Source: Longimicrobiales bacterium
GTDB taxonomy: Bacteria > Gemmatimonadota > Gemmatimonadetes > Longimicrobiales > Gaopeijiaceae
Direction: 5' to 3'
Length of the DNA: 64,000 nucleotides
Assembly (NCBI GenBank): GCA_965116905.1
Contig: OZ220732.1
Coordinates: forward strand, 1,280,001-1,344,000
The notes under the pieces are model-generated. The model saw nothing but the letters and a program-made list of their open reading frames with translations, made no database searches and was not told where the DNA came from. Every line of letters begins with the position of its first letter. Within the stretch, counting starts at the first letter, position 1. A program made the position numbers and the translations under genes. Shown here one piece after another: positions 16,478 to 34,369 of the stretch.

Positions 16478-16551
<74 letters not shown>

Positions 16552-16710
16552 TACAAGCGACGGAGTGTCTCCGGGAACGCCGCCTCAGCGCGGCGTTTCT
16601 GGCGTAGCGGCCCGGGGTACCGGGACTTGGATCGGCCAGGCCGACCGGTGGTTCCATGCGAACCCGCCGGCAGGGCCCGGTCGGTTTTTGTCGGAGCGAT
16701 GTCGGGCTTC

Positions 16711-16783
16711 GGCCAGGTAGCTCAGTTGGTAGAGCACGCGACTGAAAATCGCGGTGTCGGCGGTTCAATTCCGTCCCTGGCCA
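16711..16783 (+). tRNA. tRNA-Phe (GAA)
   Basis: Cloverleaf, anticodon loop CTGAAAA. Confidence 0.95.
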
Positions 16784-16795
16784 TTGGTTGACGCT

Positions 16796-16869
16796 AGGTC
16801 CGTAGCTCAATTTGGTAGAGCACCGGTCTCCAAAACCGGCGGTTGGGGGTTCGAGTCCCTCCGGGCCTG
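16796..16869 (+). tRNA. tRNA-Trp (CCA)
   Basis: Cloverleaf, loop CTCCAAA, G73. Confidence 0.95.
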
Positions 16870-16885
16870 TAGCCGACGGAGGTTC

Positions 16886-16957
16886 GCCCTCATCGTCTAA
16901 CGGTTAGGACACCACTCTTTCAAGGTGGAGATCGGGGTTCGATTCCCCGTGAGGGTA
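16886..16957 (+). tRNA. tRNA-Glu (TTC)
   Basis: Cloverleaf, loop CTTTCAA. Confidence 0.93.
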
Positions 16958-16993
16958 CTTGGCCGGCGCGGGTTGCCGGCCGCGAGGAAAATT

Positions 16994-17068
16994 GGGGCTG
17001 TAGCTCAGTTTGGTTAGAGTGCCGGTCTGTCACACCGGAGGCCGCGGGTTCGAGTCCCGTCAGCCCCG
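16994..17068 (+). tRNA. tRNA-Asp (GTC)
   Basis: Cloverleaf, loop CTGTCAC, G73. Confidence 0.95.
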
Positions 17069-17107
17069 CTGGCTGGTTTTTGAAAATATGGGTCGTGGAG
17101 CGGGTTT

Positions 17108-17180
17108 GGGGCCGTAGCTCAGTTGGGAGAGCGCCTGAATGGCATTCAGGAGGTCAGGGGTTCGACTCCCCTCGGCTCCA
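17108..17180 (+). tRNA. tRNA-Ala (GGC)
   Basis: Cloverleaf, G3:U70, anticodon GGC. Confidence 0.95.
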
Positions 17181-17203
17181 TTCACCGGATCGATGTGCCG
17201 AAG

Positions 17204-17288
17204 GCTCGGGTGGCGGAATTGGTAGACGCGCAGGATTCAGGATCCTGTGGGGGTTAACCCCGTGAGGGTTCGAGTCCCTCCCCGAGCA
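17204..17288 (+). tRNA. tRNA-Leu (CAG)
   Basis: Long variable arm, loop TTCAGGA. Confidence 0.95.
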
Positions 17289-17319
17289 TTGGCCGGAGCT
17301 GGCAGGCCAGGCTGGGAAC

Positions 17320-17403
17320 GCCCACGTGCTGGAATTGGTAGACAGGCTGGTTTGAGGGACCAGTGTTCGAAAGGACGTACAGGTTCGAGTCCTGTCGTGG
17401 GCA
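17320..17403 (+). tRNA. tRNA-Leu (GAG)
   Basis: Long variable arm, loop TTGAGGG. Confidence 0.95.
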
Positions 17404-17434
17404 CTGAGTTTTTCGGCGATCATCGATTGGCGGA

Positions 17435-17508
17435 GCGCCCGTAGCTCAATTGGATAGAGTACCTGACTACGGATCAGGGGGTTGGGGGTTCGAGTCCTCC
17501 CGGGCGTA
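17435..17508 (+). tRNA. tRNA-Arg (ACG)
   Basis: Cloverleaf, loop CTACGGA. Confidence 0.95.
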
Positions 17509-17516
17509 TTGGTGCA

Positions 17517-17590
17517 GGGCGCGTAGCTCAGCTGGCTAGAGTGCCACGTTGACATCGTGGAGGTCACAGGTTCAAGTCCTGTCGCGCCCA
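17517..17590 (+). tRNA. tRNA-Val (GAC)
   Basis: Cloverleaf, loop TTGACAT. Confidence 0.95.
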
Positions 17591-17620
17591 CTGGCAGTCC
17601 GCGGATGACCCGCGCGAGCA

Positions 17621-17693
17621 GGGGCCGTAGCTCAGTTGGGAGAGCGCAGCGTTCGCAACGCTGAGGTCAGGGGTTCGACTCCCCTCGGCTCCA
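17621..17693 (+). tRNA. tRNA-Ala (CGC)
   Basis: Same body as Ala(GGC), loop TTCGCAA. Confidence 0.95.
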
Positions 17694-17755
17694 CTGGCGA
17701 GGCGGCGACACGGCGGGGCCGCCGGGCCGTCCGCTTGCCGCCCGCCGGAAACATC

Positions 17756-17828
17756 GCCACCGTAGCTCAGCTGGTAGAGCACGTCACTCGTAATGACGGG
17801 GTCGTCGGTTCGAGTCCGACCGGTGGCT
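17756..17828 (+). tRNA. tRNA-Thr (CGT)
   Basis: Cloverleaf, loop CTCGTAA. Confidence 0.95.
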
Positions 17829-17834
17829 CTAGCT

Positions 17835-17907
17835 AGCCCCGTGGTGTAATTGGCAACACGTCTGACTCTGGATCAGAAGAGTCCTGGTTCGAGCCCAGGC
17901 GGGGCTA
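17835..17907 (+). tRNA. tRNA-Gln (CTG)
   Basis: Cloverleaf, loop CTCTGGA; A1-U72 pair. Confidence 0.93.
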
Positions 17908-17910
17908 CTT

Positions 17911-17995
17911 GGAGGGATGGCTGAGCGGCTAAAAGCGGCGCCCTGCTAAGGCGTTGGTCCCAGTGACCACGTGGGTTCGAATCCCACTCCCTCCG
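17911..17995 (+). tRNA. tRNA-Ser (GCT)
   Basis: Long variable arm, loop CTGCTAA, G73. Confidence 0.95.
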
Positions 17996-18127
17996 TGAAC
18001 GGCAGTGAACGGTGGGAGTGGGGTTCGAACTTGTTCGAGCCGGAGGCGGTCGCGCCGCCAGGCGCGAACGCCGGAGACGGCCGAGGACGGCGACAGCCGC
18101 CCACAGGCCCATCCCACTCCCTTTCCA
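17996..18127 (+). repeat. tRNA-Ser-associated ~132-bp element, copy 1
   Basis: Inverted copy of the host tRNA 3' end (18010-18030), conserved core shared with copy 2, direct copy of the tRNA 3' end (18111-18122). Confidence 0.85.
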
Positions 18128-18160
18128 GGAGTGCGGCACACTCGCTCAGACGACCCCCCG

Positions 18161-18245
18161 GGAGGCGTAGTCCTAATTGGTAAGGCACCGCACTCGAAAT
18201 GCGGCGTGCGTCAAGCACTTGGGGGTTCGAGTCCCTCCGCCTCCG
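18161..18245 (+). tRNA. tRNA-Ser (CGA)
   Basis: Long variable arm, loop CTCGAAA, G73. Confidence 0.95.
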
Positions 18246-18263
18246 CTCAGGGAATCTTCAAAA

Positions 18264-18337
18264 CGGGGCGTGGCTCAGTCCGGTAGAGCGCTGCGTTCGG
18301 GTCGCAGAGGTCCCCGGTTCGAATCCGGGCGCCCCGA
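18264..18337 (+). tRNA. tRNA-Pro (CGG)
   Basis: C1-G72, loop TTCGGGT. Confidence 0.95.
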
Positions 18338-18348
18338 TTACCAACCGA

Positions 18349-18432
18349 GGACGGGTGGCCGAGTGGCTTAAGGCGCACGACTGGAAATCGTGTGGGCATC
18401 TGCCCGCGTGGGTTCGAATCCCACCCCGTCCG
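18349..18432 (+). tRNA. tRNA-Ser (GGA)
   Basis: Long variable arm, loop CTGGAAA, G73. Confidence 0.95.
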
Positions 18433-18565
18433 TGAAGCGTCAGCGAACTGACGGGGTGGGGTTCGAACTTGTTCGAGCCGGAGGCGGCCGCGCCGCCAGG
18501 CGCGGGCGCCGGAGACTACCGAGGAGCGGCGGCAGCCGCCCGGAGGTTCATCCCACCCCGTCCGT
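18433..18565 (+). repeat. tRNA-Ser-associated ~132-bp element, copy 2
   Basis: Inverted copy of the host tRNA 3' end (18448-18468), conserved core, perfect 16-bp direct repeat ATCCCACCCCGTCCGT (18550-18565 = 18418-18433). Confidence 0.85.
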
Positions 18566-18576
18566 TGAGCTTCGAC

Positions 18577-19656
18577 ATGACCCCCCAAATCGTTCGCTTC
18601 GCTCCGTTGCTCCTGGGGAACTTGCTGGGTTGGAACAGTGGCGATCCACTAACCCGTCCCGTCATCCCCGGACCTGTTTCCGTAGAGCTCCAGCGTGACA
18701 CGTTGCTGTTGGAGATCGGGGTCATTGCGGGAGACCAGAACCAGGTTTTCGGCAACATCCGTGACGTCGACGTGGATGGGGATGGGAACATCCTGATTCT
18801 TGACGATCAGGACTTCAGTTTGTCCTGGTTTGGACCGGATGGGCGCTTTCGCGGCAGAACCGGACGTGACGGTGGCGGCCCCGGCGAGTTTCGAGCCCCC
18901 GCGGGTTTGGCCGTTAGTCCAGCGGGTCAGATTCACGTTTTGGATGCAGCCTCCCGAAAGGTCGTAGAGTTCGCACTGGGCGAGGAAGGCCTGGAGTTCG
19001 TTCGCAGCTTTCAGGCGCCAGTCCAAGGCAGCGACATGTGCCTTATCGACGGTCGCCTCGTTGTGCTGGGCCAGGCGTCGGATGGCGCACCCAAGGTCTA
19101 CATCCTGTCAGAGGAGGGCGAGGTGATTCGGTCGTTTGGACCAGGCTTTCCGCGCCAGCTACCTCCTCGTGGCCTGGAGAGATTCACAGCTTTTTTTGCC
19201 TCCAGTAATGGACGGGGCTATGTCCACTGCGCAGGAGGGGATGTCCTCGCGGTTGCCAGCGAGCGCCTGGGGATCGTGCGCTGGTTTTCTACACAGGGCG
19301 ACTTCATTCGTGAGGTAACGATCAACGGATTCAGCCCCGTCACGTGGACGCCAAGTCCCGGCGGTGGCCTGTCCATGGGAGTCGACCCGGCAACTGGCGT
19401 TGCCAACACGCTCTCGCACTTGTCAGGTGGAGGACCTGGACAGATCGTCGCCACGATACACACAGCATCAATGGAGGATATGGAGGGGCGTCTCGATATC
19501 TACGTACTCGACCTGGAGGCGGGCGAACAGTCGTCTCCGATCCCATCGGAGGCAGTTGCTTCAGCATTTGCGCACCACCGGCTCTACAGTCTCGTTCGCG
19601 ATCCCTATCCCAAGGTCCTGGTTCAGACAATTCCACAATGGTTGCGGCGACATTGA
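18577..19656 (+). CDS. 6-bladed beta-propeller (NHL-like) secreted protein
   Basis: FGNIRDVDVDGDGNILILD...GRDGGGPGEFRAP motif; visibly lower GC than the backbone. Confidence 0.75.
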   Translation: MTPQIVRFAPLLLGNLLGWNSGDPLTRPVIPGPVSVELQRDTLLLEIGVIAGDQNQVFGNIRDVDVDGDGNILILDDQDFSLSWFGPDGRFRGRTGRDGGGPGEFRAPAGLAVSPAGQIHVLDAASRKVVEFALGEEGLEFVRSFQAPVQGSDMCLIDGRLVVLGQASDGAPKVYILSEEGEVIRSFGPGFPRQLPPRGLERFTAFFASSNGRGYVHCAGGDVLAVASERLGIVRWFSTQGDFIREVTINGFSPVTWTPSPGGGLSMGVDPATGVANTLSHLSGGGPGQIVATIHTASMEDMEGRLDIYVLDLEAGEQSSPIPSEAVASAFAHHRLYSLVRDPYPKVLVQTIPQWLRRH

Positions 19657-20835: not shown

Positions 20836-22137
20836 CTACCCCCCGCCCACTCGCCTCACCACCACCGTCTGCATCCCCAGCTCATCCGTCTCCAGCATCG
20901 CCATCAGTCCCCCCGGACCAAGGGCCATCGGCATGGGCGTTCCCGGGGGATAGCTGCCCAGGTAGCGGCCGTCAGGGGTCAGTACATCGATCGGACCGTC
21001 GCTGAAGACGTCCTCGCCACGCCGCTGCACCCAGATCCGTCCGTCCCACGTGGTGCGCAGATCCAGGACCACCGGGACCTCGTCGGCCACCGGGACCGCT
21101 TCGAGCTGGGCCAGGGTCGACAACCGGACCCCTTCGCGCATCCTCTCGTCCATGTCCAGCGATCCCACCATGATCTCGCCCGTAGTGGCGTTCTGGATTA
21201 TGCGATTCCCCTGCCCCCTGGCCTCGAATCCCGCGATCGCCTCTTCGACCCGCCGTTCGAACTCGGCCTCCACGATCCGGTCGGTCACGGGGACGGGGTG
21301 AAGGGGGCGCGAGAGGATGCGGACGAGGGTGCCATCCGCGTCGAGGATCTTGATCGCGTACGCCGACGAGTCCGAAAACGCCAGGCCCCCTTCCGGGAGG
21401 GTGCCGACGATCAGGGGTGGACCGAAGGTGCGCGGCGGCGGCGTGACACCACCCATCGGGATTTCGCGCCCGGCGATACGGAGCGTGAGTTCGCCGACGG
21501 GCGGCAGGCTCCAGGCCTGGAAAACCGTCTCGAGGGCCACTTCGTCGCCATCCAGGGCAGCGCGCAGGATACGGCGCTTTCCGGGAGGGTCCCTTTCGTC
21601 CTCGGGGATCATCTCCTCGATCCGTGCCAGCCCGACTCCCGTGAGGACAACGCCATCGCGACCACCGTGGATGCGGTCCGCGACCGCCAGCAGGTCATTC
21701 CCCACCCGCACGCCCCGGTCGAAGCTGCCGTCGCTGTTGTAGATCTGGAACGCGCGGTGCCGCGGGACATCGCCCACAACGATGCGCCCGTCCTCCATGA
21801 CCGCCAGCCACCTGGGGAAATCGAACTCGCCGGGACCGTCGCCGGAGCGTCCGATCGTCCGCACTAAGCTGCCCTCGCGGTCAACGACCACCACCGTCGA
21901 TGCGTCGGAGTCCAGCAGGTACAGGTTGCCGGCGCGATCGAAGTCGGCATCCTGGATCCTTCCGAACTGCTCCCAGGGCTCACCGCCCATGCCGCCTGCC
22001 CGGAACACCTCCTCGAAACCGGGGTCCAGCCGGCGGTCCTCGGCGGGCAGCTCGATCAGCTCCTGGGCGGCGACAGTGGGGACGCTCGCGAGACCTGTAA
22101 GGCACAACGCGGCACCGGTGATCAGCGACCTGTTCAT
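20836..22137 (-). CDS. 6-bladed beta-propeller secreted protein
   Basis: Signal peptide; [39 protein letters not shown]. Confidence 0.82.
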
Positions 22138-22307
22138 TCGTTCCTCCCGTTCATGCCCATTGCGACTCCGGTCGATGCTCTCGGCGTTGTCTCGCTCCCG
22201 CCCCCGCGGAAACTGCCCGATTCGAGTTGACGTAAGGGTATGGAGAGCGTGGTGTATACCGCCATTGTCACCTGCTGCCGGTCTTGCTTGTTGAGACGGA
22301 GTCCCGC

Positions 22308-23498
22308 ATGCGCCAATCCTCGTTCCGGTGGGCGCTGCCGCTCACGATGCCTTTTCTCGCCGCCGCTTGTGCCGGGGACGACGCACCCACCGCCGACTAT
22401 GTCATCAACCACGATGGCGTCATCCCTGTCATCAACCACGACCCTCCTCCCGCGGCTCGGCTCGACCTGGTGGTTTCGATCGGACCGAAGACCCTGACGG
22501 ACACGGGATCACCAGACGAGTTCGGCCGCGTGAGCAGCGTTGCGCTGGGGCCGAACGAGGTGGTCTTCGTAGCCGATGACCTTAACCATGAGGTGAAAGT
22601 GTTCGGGCTCGACGGTGCCCACCTCCGGACCTTCGGCCGGGAAGGCGAGGGACCGGGAGAGTTCCAGACCCTCAATTCCCTGGTTTGGTCGGGCGACCGG
22701 GTACTGACCTTCGACCCCGACCAGGGTCGCATCGGCGAGTGGTCGCTGGAGGGCGAGTGGTTGGGGCAGCGGAGGACGCGGGCCGGCGTCACTGGCCCAC
22801 CCGACCTGGTCCGTCTGTACTCTGTCGGCCCGGACGAAGTGTTCCGGGATGCAGTGAGTGATCAGCGTTATGAGCGGCACTTGATCGGCCTGAGCAGCCG
22901 CGGCGATACGGGCGACACGCTGGCATGGCTGCGTGCGCCGCCGAGCGGCCGTCAGGCCTACATCGAGTGCGAATACGAGGATCGAATCGGCTTCTTCGAG
23001 GTCCCATTCGCCACGCGATTCCTGCAGCATCCGGGGCCGGGCGGCGTGCGGTACTCGGCACTCAGTAGCGCCTACCGGATCTTCGTCACGCGGAGCGACG
23101 GCGCGGAGGTTCTCATGGTGATCGAGCGCCCGCTGCCGGCCGAATCGTTCAGTACCGCCGAGTGGCGGGCGGCGAACGCCGAGTACTACGAGTGGCGCGA
23201 GACCCGCAGCGACGCGTCGTGCGACCCGCGGGAACCGCCGCGGCCGGATGCGAGACCGTTCATCGAGGACCTCTTCGTCGCTCCGGACGGCAAGCTGTGG
23301 GTCGAAGCCGTGCGGGCGGCGGGCAACCGCTGGGAAGTGTTCGACACCGAGGGCAGGTTGATTGCCAGCGTCCCGGCTCCCCCGCGCCGCACCGAACACG
23401 TCGTTCCCGCGTTCGGTCCAGACCATCTGCTCACGATCCGCCGGGATAGCCTCGACCTCGATCATGTCGATGTCTGGCGCCTGGAACGGGGGAGTTGA
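22308..23498 (+). CDS. 6-bladed beta-propeller lipoprotein
   Basis: Lipobox [31 protein letters not shown]. Confidence 0.82.
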
Positions 23499-23519: not shown

Positions 23520-24173
23520 TCAGCCCAGCCCTTCCAGCACCGGCAGCAACTCCGTCGGCTCCGGCCTGCGCGTGTAGTCCGGATCGGCTTCGGCATAGGC
23601 GACGACCCCGTTGCGGTCCACGACATACGTCGCCGGGACCGCGAGCTCCCACGAGGGATCCCCGTTGAAGCGACTCAGGTCGATTCGCAGTTCGTTGCGG
23701 TAGACATCCCGCAGGCGTTCGGGGAAAACGAACGTCAGCCCGTAGGATCGGGCCACCCCGTTGCCGGGGTCGGTGAGCACGTCGAACTCGATGCCGTCCT
23801 TTCTAGCCCATGAGGAGGCAAAGTCGTGGAGCTGCGGCGATAGGGTGACCAGGGTGGCTCCACGGGCGCGGATCTCCGGGTACAGGGACTGAAGAGCAGC
23901 CTGCTCAGCGCGGCAGTACGGTCACCACCGCCCGCGAAAGAAGGAGAGGATTACCGGGCCTTTCCCGAGCAGCCGGGCGAGATGCACCGTCCTGTGTTCG
24001 AGATTGGGGCGCGCGAACGGCGGCGCACGGTCCCCGGCCTTCACGATGCCGTCCATGATGCCGGATGCGGCGAGGTCGGCCGTGCAGCTCCGAAGCACGG
24101 CGGTCACCGCGGGATCCCGCTTGGCGGCGCCTGTGTCGCGGATTCGGTCGAGGGTGTCGGCGAGCGTGGGCAT
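23520..24173 (-). CDS. AhpC/TSA (peroxiredoxin-like) protein, probable selenoprotein (UxxC)
   Basis: Reads FFRGRW-[TGA 23924-23922]-PYCRAEQ in one frame through to LAVPATYVVD...DPDYTRRPEP; the family motif is FYRGxWCPYC. Confidence 0.85.
23889..23908 (-). promoter_or_regulatory. candidate bacterial SECIS hairpin
   Basis: CUGAGCA-GGC-UGCUCUUCAG; apical loop starts with G, 20 nt 3' of the UGA. Confidence 0.55.
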
Positions 24174-24339
24174 GCAGACGCATCCGGGGACGAGTGTGGG
24201 CGTGTCTGTGAAGTGACCGTAGCCAAACCTTCCGCGCACGAATCTCGTCAGGCAAGGGCAAGGCACCTGCCGGCGCAGGTATCTGCTGGAAGGCGAGCAT
24301 ACTTCCATCTCCCAGGGAATGTGGCGAAAGGAACGAAGC

Positions 24340-25122
24340 ATGACGAGACGGACGAAGCGAGCGGCGACGGCAGTCGCCCTGGTGGGTGCAGCGGCGATAC
24401 CGGCAGGACTGGCGGCTCAGAGCCGCTGTGAGCTCCGCGACGAGATCGACCTCAGCGGGCCGGCTGTGGGCACGCTGGATATCGACGCCGGGGCCGGAAG
24501 GCTTCATGTCACGGGCGGCGGCGACAGCGGTGAGATCCGCGTGATGGCGGTCCTGTGTGCCTCCGATCGCGCCCGTATGGAGGGTTTGAGCGTGTCGCTC
24601 GACGGTGACAATATTCGGACCGACTATCCGGGCCGTATCGGCGGATGGGGCAACAACTACGCGCGCATCGATCTGACGGTTGAAGTGCCCGCCGGTACGG
24701 GGATCCGGGTGGTGGACAGCTCGGGCAGCCTGGAGATCGTCGGAGTGGGCGACGTGGAGGTGCGCGACGGCTCGGGGAGCATGTCGCTCCGCGAGGTCGG
24801 GTCGGTGTACGTCGAGGACGGGTCCGGCGGCCTCAGGATAGCGGACGTGACCGGCGACGTGGACCTGGAGGATGGCTCGGGGAGCATGGAGATCCGTGGC
24901 GTCAGCGGGAACGTGACCATATCGGACGGCTCGGGGAGCATCCGGGTGGAAGGCGTCGGCGGCACGGTGCGCATCGACGAGGTCGGATCCGGGGGAGTGT
25001 CGGTACGGGATGTGGATGGGGACCTGGTGGTGACCGATGGCCGCCGCGAGCGCATCCGATACTCCGACATCCGCGGAACTCTCGACCTGCCGCCGGCGCG
25101 CCGTAGGGGGCGCGGCAGCTGA
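24340..25122 (+). CDS. secreted DUF4097/adhesin-like beta-repeat protein
   Basis: Signal peptide; repeated DGSGS-x-I-xx-V-xG units. Confidence 0.8.
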   Translation: MTRRTKRAATAVALVGAAAIPAGLAAQSRCELRDEIDLSGPAVGTLDIDAGAGRLHVTGGGDSGEIRVMAVLCASDRARMEGLSVSLDGDNIRTDYPGRIGGWGNNYARIDLTVEVPAGTGIRVVDSSGSLEIVGVGDVEVRDGSGSMSLREVGSVYVEDGSGGLRIADVTGDVDLEDGSGSMEIRGVSGNVTISDGSGSIRVEGVGGTVRIDEVGSGGVSVRDVDGDLVVTDGRRERIRYSDIRGTLDLPPARRRGRGS

Positions 25123-28509: not shown

Positions 28510-29499
<990 letters not shown>

Positions 29500-29585
29500 C
29501 AGCGACACAGATGTATACTAAAGATGACAATATGTAAAGTAGAGTTTACATTTTCCATGCCTGCGCACCGTGAGCGGTCGCGGCC

Positions 29586-30464
29586 ATGATCCCCCGCGAG
29601 ATCCTGAAGCAGGTGCGGCTGCTCGAGATTACTACGCGCGGACTCGTGAACGACGTGTTCTCGGGCGAGTACCACTCCGTCTTCAAGGGGCGGGGGATGA
29701 GCTTCGCCGAGGTGCGGGAGTACCGCTACGGCGACGACATTCGCGGGATCGACTGGAACGTGACGGCGCGGACGGGTTCGCCGCACGTGAAGGTTTTCGA
29801 GGAGGAGCGCGAGCTGACGCTGATGCTGGTCGTCGACGTGAGCGCTTCGGCCCACTTCGGGACCCGGGCGCGTATGAAGTCTGAGCTGGCGGCCGAGCTG
29901 TGCGGGGTGCTGGCGTTCAGCGCGATCAAGAACAACGACAAGGTCGGGCTGATCCTGTTTTCCGACCGGATCGAGCGGTTCGTGCCGCCTCGGAAGGGGC
30001 GCCGGCACGCGCTGCGGGTGCTGCGCGAGCTGCTGTACCACCCGGCGGAGGGCACGGGAACCGACATCGCGGGCGCGCTGGAATACCTGGCGCGGGTGAC
30101 GCGCAGGCGAGCGGTGGCGTTTCTCGTGTCGGACTTTCTGGCGGAGGGCTACGAGAGGGCGCTGTCGGTGGCGGCGCGGCGGCACGACCTGGTCGCCGTG
30201 CGGGTCGGCGACGCGCGGGAAGCGGCGATGCCGCCGATGGGGTTCGTCGAGTTCGAGGACCCCGAGACGGGTCGGCGGGTGGTGGTCAACACGTCGGGGC
30301 GGGTGTTCCAGGAGCGCTTCGGGGAGGGGCGGGCGGCGGCGCGGGCGCGTGCCGACGAGGTCTTCCGGCGCAGCAAGGTGGACTCGATCGACGTGACGAC
30401 CGGGGTGCCGTACGAGCGGGCGCTCCGGCGCTTCTTCGAGGAGCGGGGTCGGAGGGTGCGGTGA
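29586..30464 (+). CDS. DUF58 domain protein
   Basis: GMSFAEVREY..GDDIR.IDWNVTAR. Confidence 0.93.
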   Translation: MIPREILKQVRLLEITTRGLVNDVFSGEYHSVFKGRGMSFAEVREYRYGDDIRGIDWNVTARTGSPHVKVFEEERELTLMLVVDVSASAHFGTRARMKSELAAELCGVLAFSAIKNNDKVGLILFSDRIERFVPPRKGRRHALRVLRELLYHPAEGTGTDIAGALEYLARVTRRRAVAFLVSDFLAEGYERALSVAARRHDLVAVRVGDAREAAMPPMGFVEFEDPETGRRVVVNTSGRVFQERFGEGRAAARARADEVFRRSKVDSIDVTTGVPYERALRRFFEERGRRVR

Positions 30465-31549
30465 GGGGGGCCGGGTTTCTTGGGGCGGCGGGCTTGTGGC
30501 GTGCGGTCGTCGGGGCTTTCGTGGGGCTGGCGGTGCAGGCGGGGCCGTTCGCGCAGACTGGCGCCGCCCAGACCCCGCAAATCGCCATGGAGGTGGACAC
30601 GACGGCGATCCACGTGGGCGACCGGCTGGCGGTCCGCCTGACCGTCGTTCATCCGGACGACTGGGTCGTGGCCTGGCCCGATTCGTTGGCCATCTCGCCC
30701 TTCGAGGTCTTGGAATACGTGGTTGCCGTGCCGGAGGCCGTGCCGGTTGCCGTGCCGGGGGGAGGCGGGATGCGAGCGGCCGCAACGCTTGCGGTCACCA
30801 GCTTCGAGCTGGGCGAACTGGAGATTCCGCCGATCGAGGTCGCGGTGACCGAACCGGACGGCACGGTGCAGGTGCTGTCCACCGACCCCTTCCGCATCGG
30901 GGTGGAGAGCGTGGGCCTGGACGAGTCCGGCGACATCCGGGAGATCAAGGGGCCGCTGTCGATCGCGCGGAACTGGTGGACGCTGGCCCCCTGGCTGCTC
31001 CTGGTTGCGGCCGTGGGGGCGGGGGCCGTGTACCTGCGTCGGCGCGCACATGCGCGTCCGGTCGTCGAGGCCGAGAAGCCGAAGGTGCCGCCGCGCCCGT
31101 TTCACCTGGTGGCGCTGGAAGCGCTCGACGAGCTGGAGGCGTCGTCGTGGCTGGACCGCGGTCAGGTGAAGCGCTGGCACGTGCGGGTGTCGGAGATCAT
31201 CCGGACCTACGTGGAAGGGCAGCTCGAGGTCCCCGCGCTTGAAATGACCACGGGCGAGGTCGTGTCGGGGCTTCGCGGCGCGGCGCTCGGCGGGCGCGTC
31301 ACGGAGGCGTTCCATGCGTTCCTGGCCCGCTGCGACCTGGTGAAGTTCGCGAAGCTGCGCCCCGGCGCCGATGAGTCGCGGGAACTCCTGGGCGTGGCAC
31401 GCAACCTCGTGCAGATGACGAGCGGGGCGGGCGGGTTGGGCGCTGTGGGCGGCGGTGGCCCGGCAAACGACAACGCTGCGCCGGCGGACGACAACGCCGC
31501 CCCGCTCACGATCGCCACCGTTGAGGGAGCCCCTGGAGGCGCCGGATGA
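30461..31549 (+). CDS. Bat-operon membrane protein (Ig-like domain, one TM helix)
   Basis: DIREIKGP, TM helix, ALEMTT, CDLVKFA; lies between DUF58 and batA. Confidence 0.8.
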   Translation: MRGAGFLGAAGLWRAVVGAFVGLAVQAGPFAQTGAAQTPQIAMEVDTTAIHVGDRLAVRLTVVHPDDWVVAWPDSLAISPFEVLEYVVAVPEAVPVAVPGGGGMRAAATLAVTSFELGELEIPPIEVAVTEPDGTVQVLSTDPFRIGVESVGLDESGDIREIKGPLSIARNWWTLAPWLLLVAAVGAGAVYLRRRAHARPVVEAEKPKVPPRPFHLVALEALDELEASSWLDRGQVKRWHVRVSEIIRTYVEGQLEVPALEMTTGEVVSGLRGAALGGRVTEAFHAFLARCDLVKFAKLRPGADESRELLGVARNLVQMTSGAGGLGAVGGGGPANDNAAPADDNAAPLTIATVEGAPGGAG

Positions 31550-32538
31550 TCTTCCGTTTCGAGGATCCGTGGATGCTGCTCCTGCTGGGTGTCGTTCCGC
31601 TGCTGGGCTGGTGGTACGCGTCGCGCGGAAGGACTCGACGGGGATCGCTGACCTATTCCGACGTGGACGGACTCCTGCGTGCGCACGGTGGGGACGGGCG
31701 GTGGCTGCAGCACCTGCCGGCGGCGCTGCGCGGACTGGCGCTGGTTTGTCTCATCGTGGCATTCGCGCGCCCGCAAACCGGGGTCACCGGTGAGAATGTC
31801 GTGTCGGAGGGGATCGACATCGTGCTGGCGCTGGATGTCTCCAGTTCCATGCTCGCCGAGGACCTGGCGCCGAATCGGCTGGAGGCGGCCAAGGCGGTGG
31901 CGGCGGACTTCGCGGCCGGGCGCGTCAACGACCGCATCGGGCTCGTGATCTTCGCCGGTAAGGCGTTCACCCAGGCGCCCCTCACGCTGGATCATTCCGT
32001 CGTGGTGTCCATGCTGGCCGAACTCGAGGTCGGGATGGTCGAAGACGGTACCGCCGTCGGCATGGGACTGGCCACCGCGGTCAAGCGGCTCCAGGCCAGC
32101 GAGGCCGCGTCGAAGGTCGTGGTTCTGCTGACCGACGGGCGCAACAACCGGGGCGAGATCGATCCGGTCACGGCGGCGCAGGCAGCCCAGGCGCTGGGTG
32201 TGCGCGTCTATACCATAGGGGCGGGCGCTCGGGGGATGGCCCGCGTGCCGGTGCCCGACGGCTTCGGAGGCACGCGTTACGTGACGACCCGGGTCGATGT
32301 GGACGAACCGGCCCTGAGAGCGACCGCGGAGACGACCGGGGGGAGGTACTACCGGGCGACCGATCGCGAGAGCCTGGAAGCCATCTACGAGGAGATCGAC
32401 CAACTGGAAACGACCGAGATGCTTGTCGAGAACTTCACGAGCTATGGTGAGCGCTTCACGTTCCCGCTGATCCTGGGGCTGATCTTCCTTCTGGCCGAAG
32501 TCGTGCTGGGGCGCACCTGGCTGAGGACGCTTCCCTGA
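31546..32538 (+). CDS. batA: vWA domain protein BatA
   Basis: ARPQ, MIDAS DVSSSM, LTDGRNN. Confidence 0.88.
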   Translation: MIFRFEDPWMLLLLGVVPLLGWWYASRGRTRRGSLTYSDVDGLLRAHGGDGRWLQHLPAALRGLALVCLIVAFARPQTGVTGENVVSEGIDIVLALDVSSSMLAEDLAPNRLEAAKAVAADFAAGRVNDRIGLVIFAGKAFTQAPLTLDHSVVVSMLAELEVGMVEDGTAVGMGLATAVKRLQASEAASKVVVLLTDGRNNRGEIDPVTAAQAAQALGVRVYTIGAGARGMARVPVPDGFGGTRYVTTRVDVDEPALRATAETTGGRYYRATDRESLEAIYEEIDQLETTEMLVENFTSYGERFTFPLILGLIFLLAEVVLGRTWLRTLP

Positions 32539-33566
32539 TGTTCCGCTTCGGTGACGCCGCAGCCCTGTGGGCACTGATCCTGGTCCCCCTCCTCGCCGCG
32601 CTGTACTGGTACGCCGGTCGCCGCGGCCGGGTCCTGATGGACCGTTTCGGGGAACACGAGCTTGTGCGGCGCCTGCGGGCCACGGTGAGCGTCACCGCCG
32701 CGCGATGGAAGGGCGCGCTCGTGCTGGCGGCGGTCGCGGCCCTCGTACTCGCGGTGGCCCGCCCCCAGTTCGGCACCCGTGTCGAGACACTGCGGCGGCA
32801 GGGCCAGGACGTGATGGTGGCCCTCGATGTCTCGCGTTCGATGTACGCCGGCGACGTGGCGCCCAGCCGCCTGGAGCGTGCCAGGATCGAGATCGGAAGG
32901 ATCATCCAGCGTCTGGACGGCGACAGGATCGGTCTGGTGGCGTTTGCGGGCGACGCCTTCGTGCAGAGTCCGCTCACGGCCGACTACGGCGCGGCCATGA
33001 TGTTCCTCAGCGCGATGGACCCGGCTTTGATGTCCACGCAGGGAACCGATCTCGCCAGGGCCTTGACGGTGTCCATCGAAGCGCTGGAGGAGACGCCGCC
33101 CGAGAACCGGATCATCGTCGTTGTCACCGACGGGGAGGATCACGAGGGCGGGCTCGCGGAGGCCATTGCGGCGGCGGCCGAGGCCCAGGCCACGGTCCAC
33201 ACCGTGGGGGTGGGGTCGCCGGAGGGCGTGCCGCTGCCCGACGTGGACGGGGTGGAAGCGCGGGGCCGGTTCCGCCGCGATGATCAGGGCAACGTGATCA
33301 CCACGCGCCTGAACGAGACCGCGCTCCAGGACATCGCCCTGCAGACGGGCGGCGAGTACCACCGCGTGGGCGAAGGCGGGGGAGGTCTGGGCCGGCTTCT
33401 GGAAAGGATCGAAGACGGCGGCCGGGAGGTAGAATCCCGTGAGGTCACGCAATTCGAGGAGCAGTTCCAGATCTTTCTCGGGGCGGCGTTGCTTCTGCTC
33501 GTGGTGGAGGTCATCGTGCCGGGAAGGCGAAGGCGTCGGGCCGCAGGACTGGAGGAAGCATCGTGA
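32538..33566 (+). CDS. batB: vWA domain protein BatB
   Basis: DVSRSM, PSRLERA, TDGEDH. Confidence 0.88.
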   Translation: MFRFGDAAALWALILVPLLAALYWYAGRRGRVLMDRFGEHELVRRLRATVSVTAARWKGALVLAAVAALVLAVARPQFGTRVETLRRQGQDVMVALDVSRSMYAGDVAPSRLERARIEIGRIIQRLDGDRIGLVAFAGDAFVQSPLTADYGAAMMFLSAMDPALMSTQGTDLARALTVSIEALEETPPENRIIVVVTDGEDHEGGLAEAIAAAAEAQATVHTVGVGSPEGVPLPDVDGVEARGRFRRDDQGNVITTRLNETALQDIALQTGGEYHRVGEGGGGLGRLLERIEDGGREVESREVTQFEEQFQIFLGAALLLLVVEVIVPGRRRRRAAGLEEAS

Positions 33567-34369
33567 GATTCCGTCGCTCGCATCTCGTCCTGTGGGCGGC
33601 CGCTTTGGTGGCCGCCGCGGTGTCCCTGGGGATTGCGGGCCCCGCGCAGGGCCAGGAGGGCCGCCGGGAAGTCGAGGCCGGAAACCGGCTCTATGAGGAA
33701 GGACGCTTTCAGGAGGCGCACGCCCGCTACCTGGAGGCGCTCGAGCGGGTGCCGGGGCTGCCGGTCGCGCGCTTCAACGAGGGCAGCGCCCTCTACCGGA
33801 GCCAGGAATTCCAGCGGGCGATGGAGGCCTTCCTCGAGGCGGCCGAGGGAGCGGATCCGGAGTGGCAGGCAGACGCGCTGTACAACCTCGGGAACGCGTT
33901 GATCCGGCAGCAGCAGCCCGGACCGGCGGCCGAGGCCTACAAGCAGGCGCTGCGTCTGGATCCCGGCGACCAGGACGCGAAGCACAACCTCGAACTGGCC
34001 CTGCAGCAGCTTGAGCAGCAGGAGCAGCAGCAAGGCGGCGAAGGCCAGGAGGGCGACGACCAGAACCAGGACCCGCAGCAGCAGGGAGAGAGCCAGCCAC
34101 AGCCCCAGGGCAACGAAGAGGGCGAACAGGAGAACAACCCCTCGCAGGGGGAAGACGGGCAGCCGCAGCCCCAGCCCCAGGACGGCTCGCCCGAAGGCGA
34201 ATCGCCGCCCGAAGACCAGCAGGACGGGGAGGGGCAATCGGACATGCCGCCCCCCCAGATGACGCCCGAGCAGGCCGAGCGACTGCTTCAGGCGATCACC
34301 GAGGATCCGGGAGAGGTGAACCGGAAGGCGGCCCAGGCCCGAGGCCGGCGCCCCAGGAGGGACTGGTAG
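33563..34369 (+). CDS. batC: TPR protein BatC
   Basis: TPR repeats (YNLGNA, AKHNLELA), Q/E-rich linker, C-terminal DW. Confidence 0.85.
   Translation: MRFRRSHLVLWAAALVAAAVSLGIAGPAQGQEGRREVEAGNRLYEEGRFQEAHARYLEALERVPGLPVARFNEGSALYRSQEFQRAMEAFLEAAEGADPEWQADALYNLGNALIRQQQPGPAAEAYKQALRLDPGDQDAKHNLELALQQLEQQEQQQGGEGQEGDDQNQDPQQQGESQPQPQGNEEGEQENNPSQGEDGQPQPQPQDGSPEGESPPEDQQDGEGQSDMPPPQMTPEQAERLLQAITEDPGEVNRKAAQARGRRPRRDW

Follow-up and report, generated by a model that had tools for sequence, protein, structure and literature searches.

A conserved gene on the minus strand of the window (the whole 64,000-nt stretch of DNA analysed here) is intact across an in-frame UGA that is very likely recoded as selenocysteine (Sec), a reading to which we give a probability of about 0.93. 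This assignment is made by comparative sequence analysis: the frame is open, the TGA is conserved, selection is purifying on both sides of it, a hairpin downstream is constrained and the genome holds complete Sec machinery. The product is predicted to belong to the known 'Prx-like thiol:disulfide oxidoreductase / Prx-like 1' family, as a U-x-x-C oxidoreductase with a thioredoxin fold. Its features are as follows.

23520..24173, minus strand: coding sequence, stop codon included, of a predicted 217-aa Prx-like (PF00578/PF08534) UxxC selenoprotein, from the frame, Pfam, orthologue starts and AlphaFold2
23922..23924, minus strand: in-frame UGA, predicted Sec84, first residue of U-P-Y-C, where helix 85-103 begins; TGA in 16/16 gene-bearing relatives, invariant Cys in 75 Cys homologues
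23913..23915, minus strand: Cys87, second residue of UxxC and predicted resolving Cys, invariant in alignment A3 and in 19/19 orthologues
23894..23906, minus strand: predicted bacterial SECIS upper stem-loop GAGC-A-GGC-U-GCUC, codons E90-L94, from GCT codons, pairing and covariation, and TGA versus Cys loci
23634..23636, minus strand: Pro180, at the place of the thioredoxin-fold cis-Pro and of the true-peroxiredoxin catalytic Arg, invariant in A3, placed by a low-scoring profile alignment
24066..24164, minus strand: N-terminal two-helix extension, residues 4-36, typical of the subfamily, with helices 4-18 and 21-36 modelled at pLDDT >90

One reading frame with a conserved internal TGA

The gene runs from an ATG at 24173 to a terminal TGA at 23522-23520 (-), a single frame of 217 codons whose sole internal stop is the TGA at 23924-23922, codon 84, within the peptide VILSFFRGRW*PYCRAEQAALQ. 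Two fragments of the open reading frame track (23922-24341 and 23520-23780) share this frame, bearing out the original prediction that they form one 217-aa protein with no other lesion. The ATG lies exactly 83 codons ahead of the TGA in 18 of 19 orthologues, and GC3 is 0.86 before the TGA and 0.82 after it. A longer, 274-codon form from ATG 24341 was rejected: orthologues begin at the position of 24173, and the assemblies of public runs X2, X3 and X4 have an extra base near 24269. That base, at window position 24269, is found in contigs of these three runs and not of X1, and falls between two divergent genes.

A pseudogene arising by nonsense mutation, or an error of sequencing or assembly, could in principle account for the TGA: TGC becomes TGA by one change, TGA ends more long coding ORFs here than any other stop (1050/1766) and the hairpin downstream is weak. 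However, contigs of runs X2, X3 and X4 cover the codon and all agree at 23888-23927, with no differing letter there and many differences nearby, so the TGA is not an assembly error; TGC or TGT, the sign of a sequencing error, was sought in these assemblies and does not occur. One contig of the RNA run X3 holds the stretch; it spans both divergent genes, and so is no demonstration of transcription, and it may originate from DNA. A consensus promoter scan at the locus gave no match.

The TGA is also conserved well beyond the species. Among 61 genomes, the gene is present (E of 1e-20 or lower) in 16, namely the window's own and 15 of the 36 from its genus, and in 0 of 24 from two other families; every copy has a single TGA, always in the same column. 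All 16 carriers have selA, which is present in 48/61 genomes overall. The two other families (G037-G060) split, selA being found in 12/12 genomes of f3 and 0/12 of f2, and this query recovered the redoxin from neither, so that its distribution is patchy even among Sec users. Across a sample of the phylum, 31/301 genomes match, 30 of the 31 with an internal TGA. Checking the column in 23 newly fetched loci gave 22 TGA and 1 Cys, the last from G078, the one Cys carrier in the phylum sample, though its genome has selA. G197 was left out of this check; its homologue (G197:C1:1613171-1613730) is split over two matches that overlap in different frames, one of them containing a TGA, which may reflect a frameshift or decay.

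A scan of a wider collection returned 53 loci, 20 with TGA, 32 with TGY and 1 not covering the column, proportions that are no estimate since the search patterns included a Cys word. Records with the TGA form are titled Rokubacteria, Hyphomicrobiaceae, Reyranella, Acidiferrales and Desulfobacterales, among others. One record titled Deltaproteobacteria (L009) has a redoxin 89% and a neighbouring gene 90.5% identical to those of the window; it is probably mis-binned or mis-titled. The identical TGA persists across phyla and in proteins only about 40% identical, it aligns with a Cys that never varies among 75 Cys homologues (alignment A3), and the expected alternation was seen, with only TGA or TGY in the Sec column. 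selA occurs in 5/5 TGA-form genomes from other phyla compared with 1/5 Cys-form genomes, in a small sample with MAGs of unstated completeness.

Purifying selection acts both before and after the TGA. In 18 pairwise comparisons against the window gene (four duplicate loci having been dropped), dN/dS is 0.10-0.30 upstream and 0.08-0.21 downstream, and the relaxed downstream selection that would accompany decay was looked for and not seen. With the TGA shared at such distances, downstream dN/dS no higher than 0.21 and other assemblies concurring at the codon, a pseudogene or an error is vanishingly improbable; on sequence grounds, we regard it as already refuted by conservation and dN/dS.

Selenocysteine machinery and genomic context

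The genome, a single contig of 4.2 Mb that is 97% complete, encodes the Sec machinery whose presence elsewhere in the genome had been foreseen. Genes for selA (497.6 bits), selB (308.2 bits, with a full-length frame) and selD (373.3 bits, with an in-frame TGA of its own) all score over their cut-offs, and a tRNA-Sec with a UCA anticodon scores 79.7 bits. The latter is the sole UCA tRNA in the 50-gene list from ARAGORN.

These genes bear on whether a variant code or suppression could place Trp, Gly or Cys at the UGA, or whether the two halves could be expressed separately, as gene callers imply by giving the 120-122-aa C-terminal piece its own start. A variant code is unlikely because TGA is the commonest stop, and TGA also terminates this very gene. 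The only UCA tRNA listed is the tRNA-Sec, separate halves would split a single compact domain within its UxxC motif, and the TGA form co-occurs with selA; we consider decoding as another residue, or as two proteins, highly improbable. Conserved TGA, selA co-occurrence and Sec machinery instead uphold the original prediction of a UxxC selenoenzyme.

The genome has at least nine further candidate selenoprotein genes of known families, a lower bound since the dicodon screen used in looking for them is crude, with TGAs at contig positions 3903242(-), 3912652(-), 3674310(+), 3369960(-), 169688(+), 1254176(-), 641802(+), 3656670(+) and 3690576(-) (loci L100-L106 and L004). Two of them, another UxxC redoxin and a peroxiredoxin with TxxU, have N-termini that by eye resemble signal peptides; the others are two CxxU proteins like AhpD/CMD, two OsmC-like proteins, SelD, FdhA and a MerB-like lyase with T-U in place of the listed C-U motif. 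Pfam matches flank the TGA of the candidates on at least one side, and a G-loop hairpin accompanies most of them. Counted as candidates and as a lower bound, the lineage would carry about ten selenoproteins.

The nearest named relatives of the gene are in Gemmatimonadota/Longimicrobiales MAGs (87-90% identity), and the best-matching named runs for this lineage are sponge metagenomes. Neighbouring genes differ between clades (DUF4097, amidohydrolase, carboxylesterase-like and beta-propeller genes in loci with 1.5-3 kb flanks) and so offer no operon clue; a conserved partner gene was sought, and none was found beyond close kin. In the window, genes for 6-bladed beta-propellers (NHL/DUF5128-like) flank the locus at 18469-19656 (+), 20836-22137 (-) and 22284-23498 (+), the first two called from weak Pfam matches and the third by eye. 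Elsewhere in the window lie an array of 17 tRNA genes (16478-18432, +) and a Bat-type cluster (28510-34369, +) of a MoxR AAA ATPase, DUF58, two BatA/VWA genes and a TPR gene. Of the 17 anticodons in the array, 14, those of the sole Phe, Trp and Asp tRNAs among them, are absent from the rest of ARAGORN's 50-gene list for the genome, which suggests a core cluster and not a redundant mobile array.

The hairpin downstream of the UGA

The hairpin GAGCA-GGC-UGCUC occupies 23906-23894 (-), and its loop begins 20 nt after the UGA. The bacterial SECIS (bSECIS) consensus, as given in the available text of PMC13188914, has a loop of 3-9 nt beginning with G[G/U], an upper stem of 4-16 bp and a distance of 16-37 nt from the UGA. 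The 5-bp stem, GGC loop and 20-nt distance found here have this geometry, and the loop A-GG-C-U agrees with the published pattern and spacing. In energy, the element is borderline: the upper stem alone (−4.1 kcal/mol) misses the bSECIS limit of −7.5 kcal/mol, the region from +4 to +45 gives −9.2 kcal/mol, and the hairpin is no more stable than shuffled sequences (z of +0.55 to +1.47). Further, among 5000 random TGA triplets of this 68% GC genome, a loose rule for G-first hairpins passes 45% with stems of at least 4 bp and 23% with stems of at least 5 bp, so the hairpin alone is at chance level and only its conservation makes it evidence. We accordingly dropped stability as an argument. The hairpin originally noted 20 nt after the UGA, with its G-first loop, is present and conserved, but is weak when taken by itself.

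Several observations indicate that, at the level of these alignments, the hairpin is under RNA-level constraint. First, of 65 invariant columns holding residues with at least four-fold degeneracy in 19 orthologues, only three use a single codon: Ala92 (GCT), Ala93 (GCT) and Thr201 (ACG). The two GCT codons are invariant in 19/19 orthologues, and their wobble Us pair with the two As of the 5′ arm. GCT is rare, making up 3.7% of the 80,522 Ala codons in the genome and 29/460 of the other Ala codons in the same orthologue genes, and GCT-GCT accounts for 23 of 10,711 Ala-Ala pairs in the genome.

Second, in a less redundant set of 31 of the 53 TGA sequences, an 8-bp stem closed by a triloop is paired in 81.9% of cells, compared with 76.5% in shuffles (reached by 0/500) and 38-52% in slid controls. 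The closing pair is AU in 13 sequences, UA in 8, UG in 1 and unpaired in 9. In a control of 11 Cys sequences, stem pairing is 55.7%, with 121/500 shuffles doing as well. Third, stem covariation in the 31 sequences is 0.190 against 0.121 when shuffled, and a 4-bp core with G[G/U] is found at 52/53 TGA loci and 0/12 Cys loci (five duplicates and loci with <150 aligned residues or <30% identity having been dropped), figures for covariation and for the 52/53 that are overstated because the stem register and the core were defined on the same TGA sequences and because kin are non-independent.

An exact-motif scan for the hairpin after a TGA gave 22 matches among 87,943 TGA triplets, of which only this gene looked coding by eye; the motif is therefore specific to the family and not genome-wide. 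By analogy with established bacterial Sec decoding, the SelB-GTP-Sec-tRNA complex would bind the GG loop and bring Sec to codon 84.

Active site, predicted chemistry and family

With U at position 84, the protein matches AhpC-TSA (PF00578) at 94.3 bits (cut-off 26) and Redoxin at 70.2 bits, both matches running across the TGA, and contains the UxxC motif U84-P-Y-C87. Built from 76 sequences with Cys placed at 84, an AlphaFold2 model reaches a mean pLDDT of 97.2 and a pTM of 0.92. It resembles AhpE 5id2 (Z 21.2, rmsd 1.4 over 151 residues), BcpB (20.3), Bcp1 (19.3) and ResA (16.4), and Foldseek returns Bcp4 3hjp (E 1.4e-13); the matches mostly span residues 41-217 and leave residues 1-40 largely unmatched. 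Inspection by eye found no evident membrane anchor or signal peptide, and the product would be cytoplasmic.

The active site departs from this closest fold. The PxxxT/SxxC(U) motif of true peroxiredoxins is absent: in RGRWUPYC, profile alignment places Arg80 at the Pro and Sec84 at the Thr of PxxxTxxC. The peroxiredoxin catalytic Arg, which precedes the strand near the C-terminus, is likewise absent, Pro180, invariant in alignment A3, being aligned there in a low-scoring stretch. Pro180 stands opposite an Arg of the peroxiredoxin 2ywn and a Pro of ResA 4nmu, both within second alignment stretches that score low (10.0 and 2.6 bits); we take these counterparts to be the 'catalytic Arg' and the 'cis-Pro', respectively. 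Taken together, model and alignment give an active site of thioredoxin type set in a scaffold like that of peroxiredoxins. Among 114 full-length Cys homologues, the motif is CPYC in 102, CPFC in 11 and CPSC in 1. No NCBIfam cut-off is reached by the SelL-related NF040769 (32.5/120 bits), PrxU NF040737 (18.4/270) or ResA NF002854 (45.2/170).

Lacking the peroxiredoxin Pro and Arg and having a thioredoxin-type Pro, the protein is likely a thiol-disulfide oxidoreductase and not an AhpC peroxidase, a call weakened by a fold closest to true peroxiredoxins (AhpE and BcpB over ResA); given recoding, dithiol-disulfide exchange is the chemistry we favour, with reservations. The initial label 'AhpC/TSA-like' accordingly holds as a Pfam fold name, whereas the active-site residues point to thiol-disulfide exchange. 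A real selenoprotein could instead reduce peroxide physiologically, with Sec replacing the Arg/Thr activation of Cys peroxiredoxins. Selenolates are highly reactive with peroxides, the best Pfam match is AhpC-TSA and the top structural matches are AhpE, Bcp and PrxQ peroxiredoxins, all of which suit a peroxidase. We nevertheless hold peroxide reduction to be the unlikelier chemistry by a fair way, as Arg80 and the invariant Pro180 occupy the positions of the motif Pro and catalytic Arg, the same active site works as CxxC in Cys homologues and no NCBIfam peroxiredoxin model comes near its cut-off. In thiol-disulfide exchange, the Sec84 selenolate would attack a disulfide or oxidised-thiol substrate, the mixed selenylsulfide would be resolved by Cys87 with Pro180 taking the cis-Pro role, and a cellular reductant would recycle the enzyme, whose most likely job would be thiol repair under oxidative stress.

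The closest Cys-form relatives, 'peroxiredoxin-like family' proteins of Caulobacter, Sphingomonas, Bradyrhizobium and Methylobacterium (P0015, P0054, P0064, P0039), are 38-47% identical over nearly the full length. They share FxRGxWCPYC (Cys for Sec), the invariant P180 and D199/R203/P206, and differ in having Cys for Sec and no hairpin core. We take them to be of the CDD PRX_like2 type, cd02970. As described in the available part of PMC3514251, PRX_like2 proteins are CXXC proteins without the typical peroxiredoxin catalytic trait, which by that description fits this protein. True peroxiredoxins (AhpC, BCP/PrxQ and AhpE) and Sec-Prx (TxxU) have its fold in common; unlike them, it has neither PxxxTxxC/U nor the catalytic Arg, and its Sec is at the Thr position and not that of the peroxidatic Cys. 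ResA/TlpA/DsbE have a WCxxC-type motif and, like this protein, Pro at the cis-Pro position; this protein differs in its extra N-terminal helices, its helical insertion at 152-170 and the lack of an evident anchor or signal peptide.

Both the redoxin family and the subfamily have been predicted as selenoproteins before, and this gene would add another member. The available text of PMC13188914 lists a 'Prx-like thiol:disulfide oxidoreductase' (PF00578, UxxC/UxxU, a high-confidence prediction), with WP_010940744.1 as an example that may come from another subgroup of the loose Prx-like family, together with a cd02970 UxxS family and a PF08534 UxxC redoxin, their functions largely uncharacterised. 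In the portions available, PMC1088965 counts 22 Prx-like selenoproteins and PMC1794560 lists the Prx-like family with Cys-to-Sec conversions. The 2008 GOS survey (PMC2398784, in its available parts) reports 225 'Prx-like 1' selenoprotein sequences, with the same Pfam family (pfam00578) and UxxC motif as this protein. Between the headers '#Prx-like 1' and '#Prx-like 2' of its Dataset S1, four records, including JCVI_READ_1091141146517 and JCVI_READ_1091141080623, are colinear with this protein by eye, and share a helical N-terminal extension ending in SGI, FRGxWUPYCxAE, S/TPQ, NGDxSWxLPxP and a PxYxxRPEP tail. Against the Prx-like 1 members published there, what differs is the host lineage (Gemmatimonadota/Longimicrobiales) and the A-GGC-U loop variant. 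The available text of the 2026 review PMC13188914 has 0 mentions of Gemmatimonadota, and a search of the open literature, with subscription journals outside its scope, found no paper devoted to selenoproteomes of this phylum.

A bolder proposal is that the helical-cap subfamily forms a separate Sec enzyme spread across phyla and dedicated to one substrate of its own, which the pair of N-terminal helices and the insertion at 152-170 (largely missing from solved Prx/Trx structures) would select, with a conserved near-minimal SECIS, GAGC-N-G[G/U]N-N-GCYC, with nearly all its Sec members hidden by annotation, and with the proteobacterial Cys 'peroxiredoxin-like family' perhaps derived from it by Sec-to-Cys reversion; we think this proposal improbable as a whole. 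Two quick trees place the main proteobacterial Cys clade within the Sec rows, with unstarred support, but an AU test on 40 selected rows of 103 did not reject one clade of Sec rows (p 0.626), the tree under that constraint having the better score. We therefore do not take a Sec-to-Cys origin of that clade as a firm result.

The value of the finding is more practical than conceptual. As was anticipated, pipelines truncate the gene, which is represented in databases by a cluster of 46 members of 83 aa, two of them named 'hypothetical protein', and by separate C-terminal fragments of 120-122 aa. Since no NCBIfam model reaches its cut-off for the subfamily, a dedicated model would rescue this mis-annotated gene (an 83-aa hypothetical protein plus a 120-aa fragment) in many genomes, and the orthologue set shows with unusual clarity how a weak SECIS can be marked by constraint at synonymous sites together with compensatory change.
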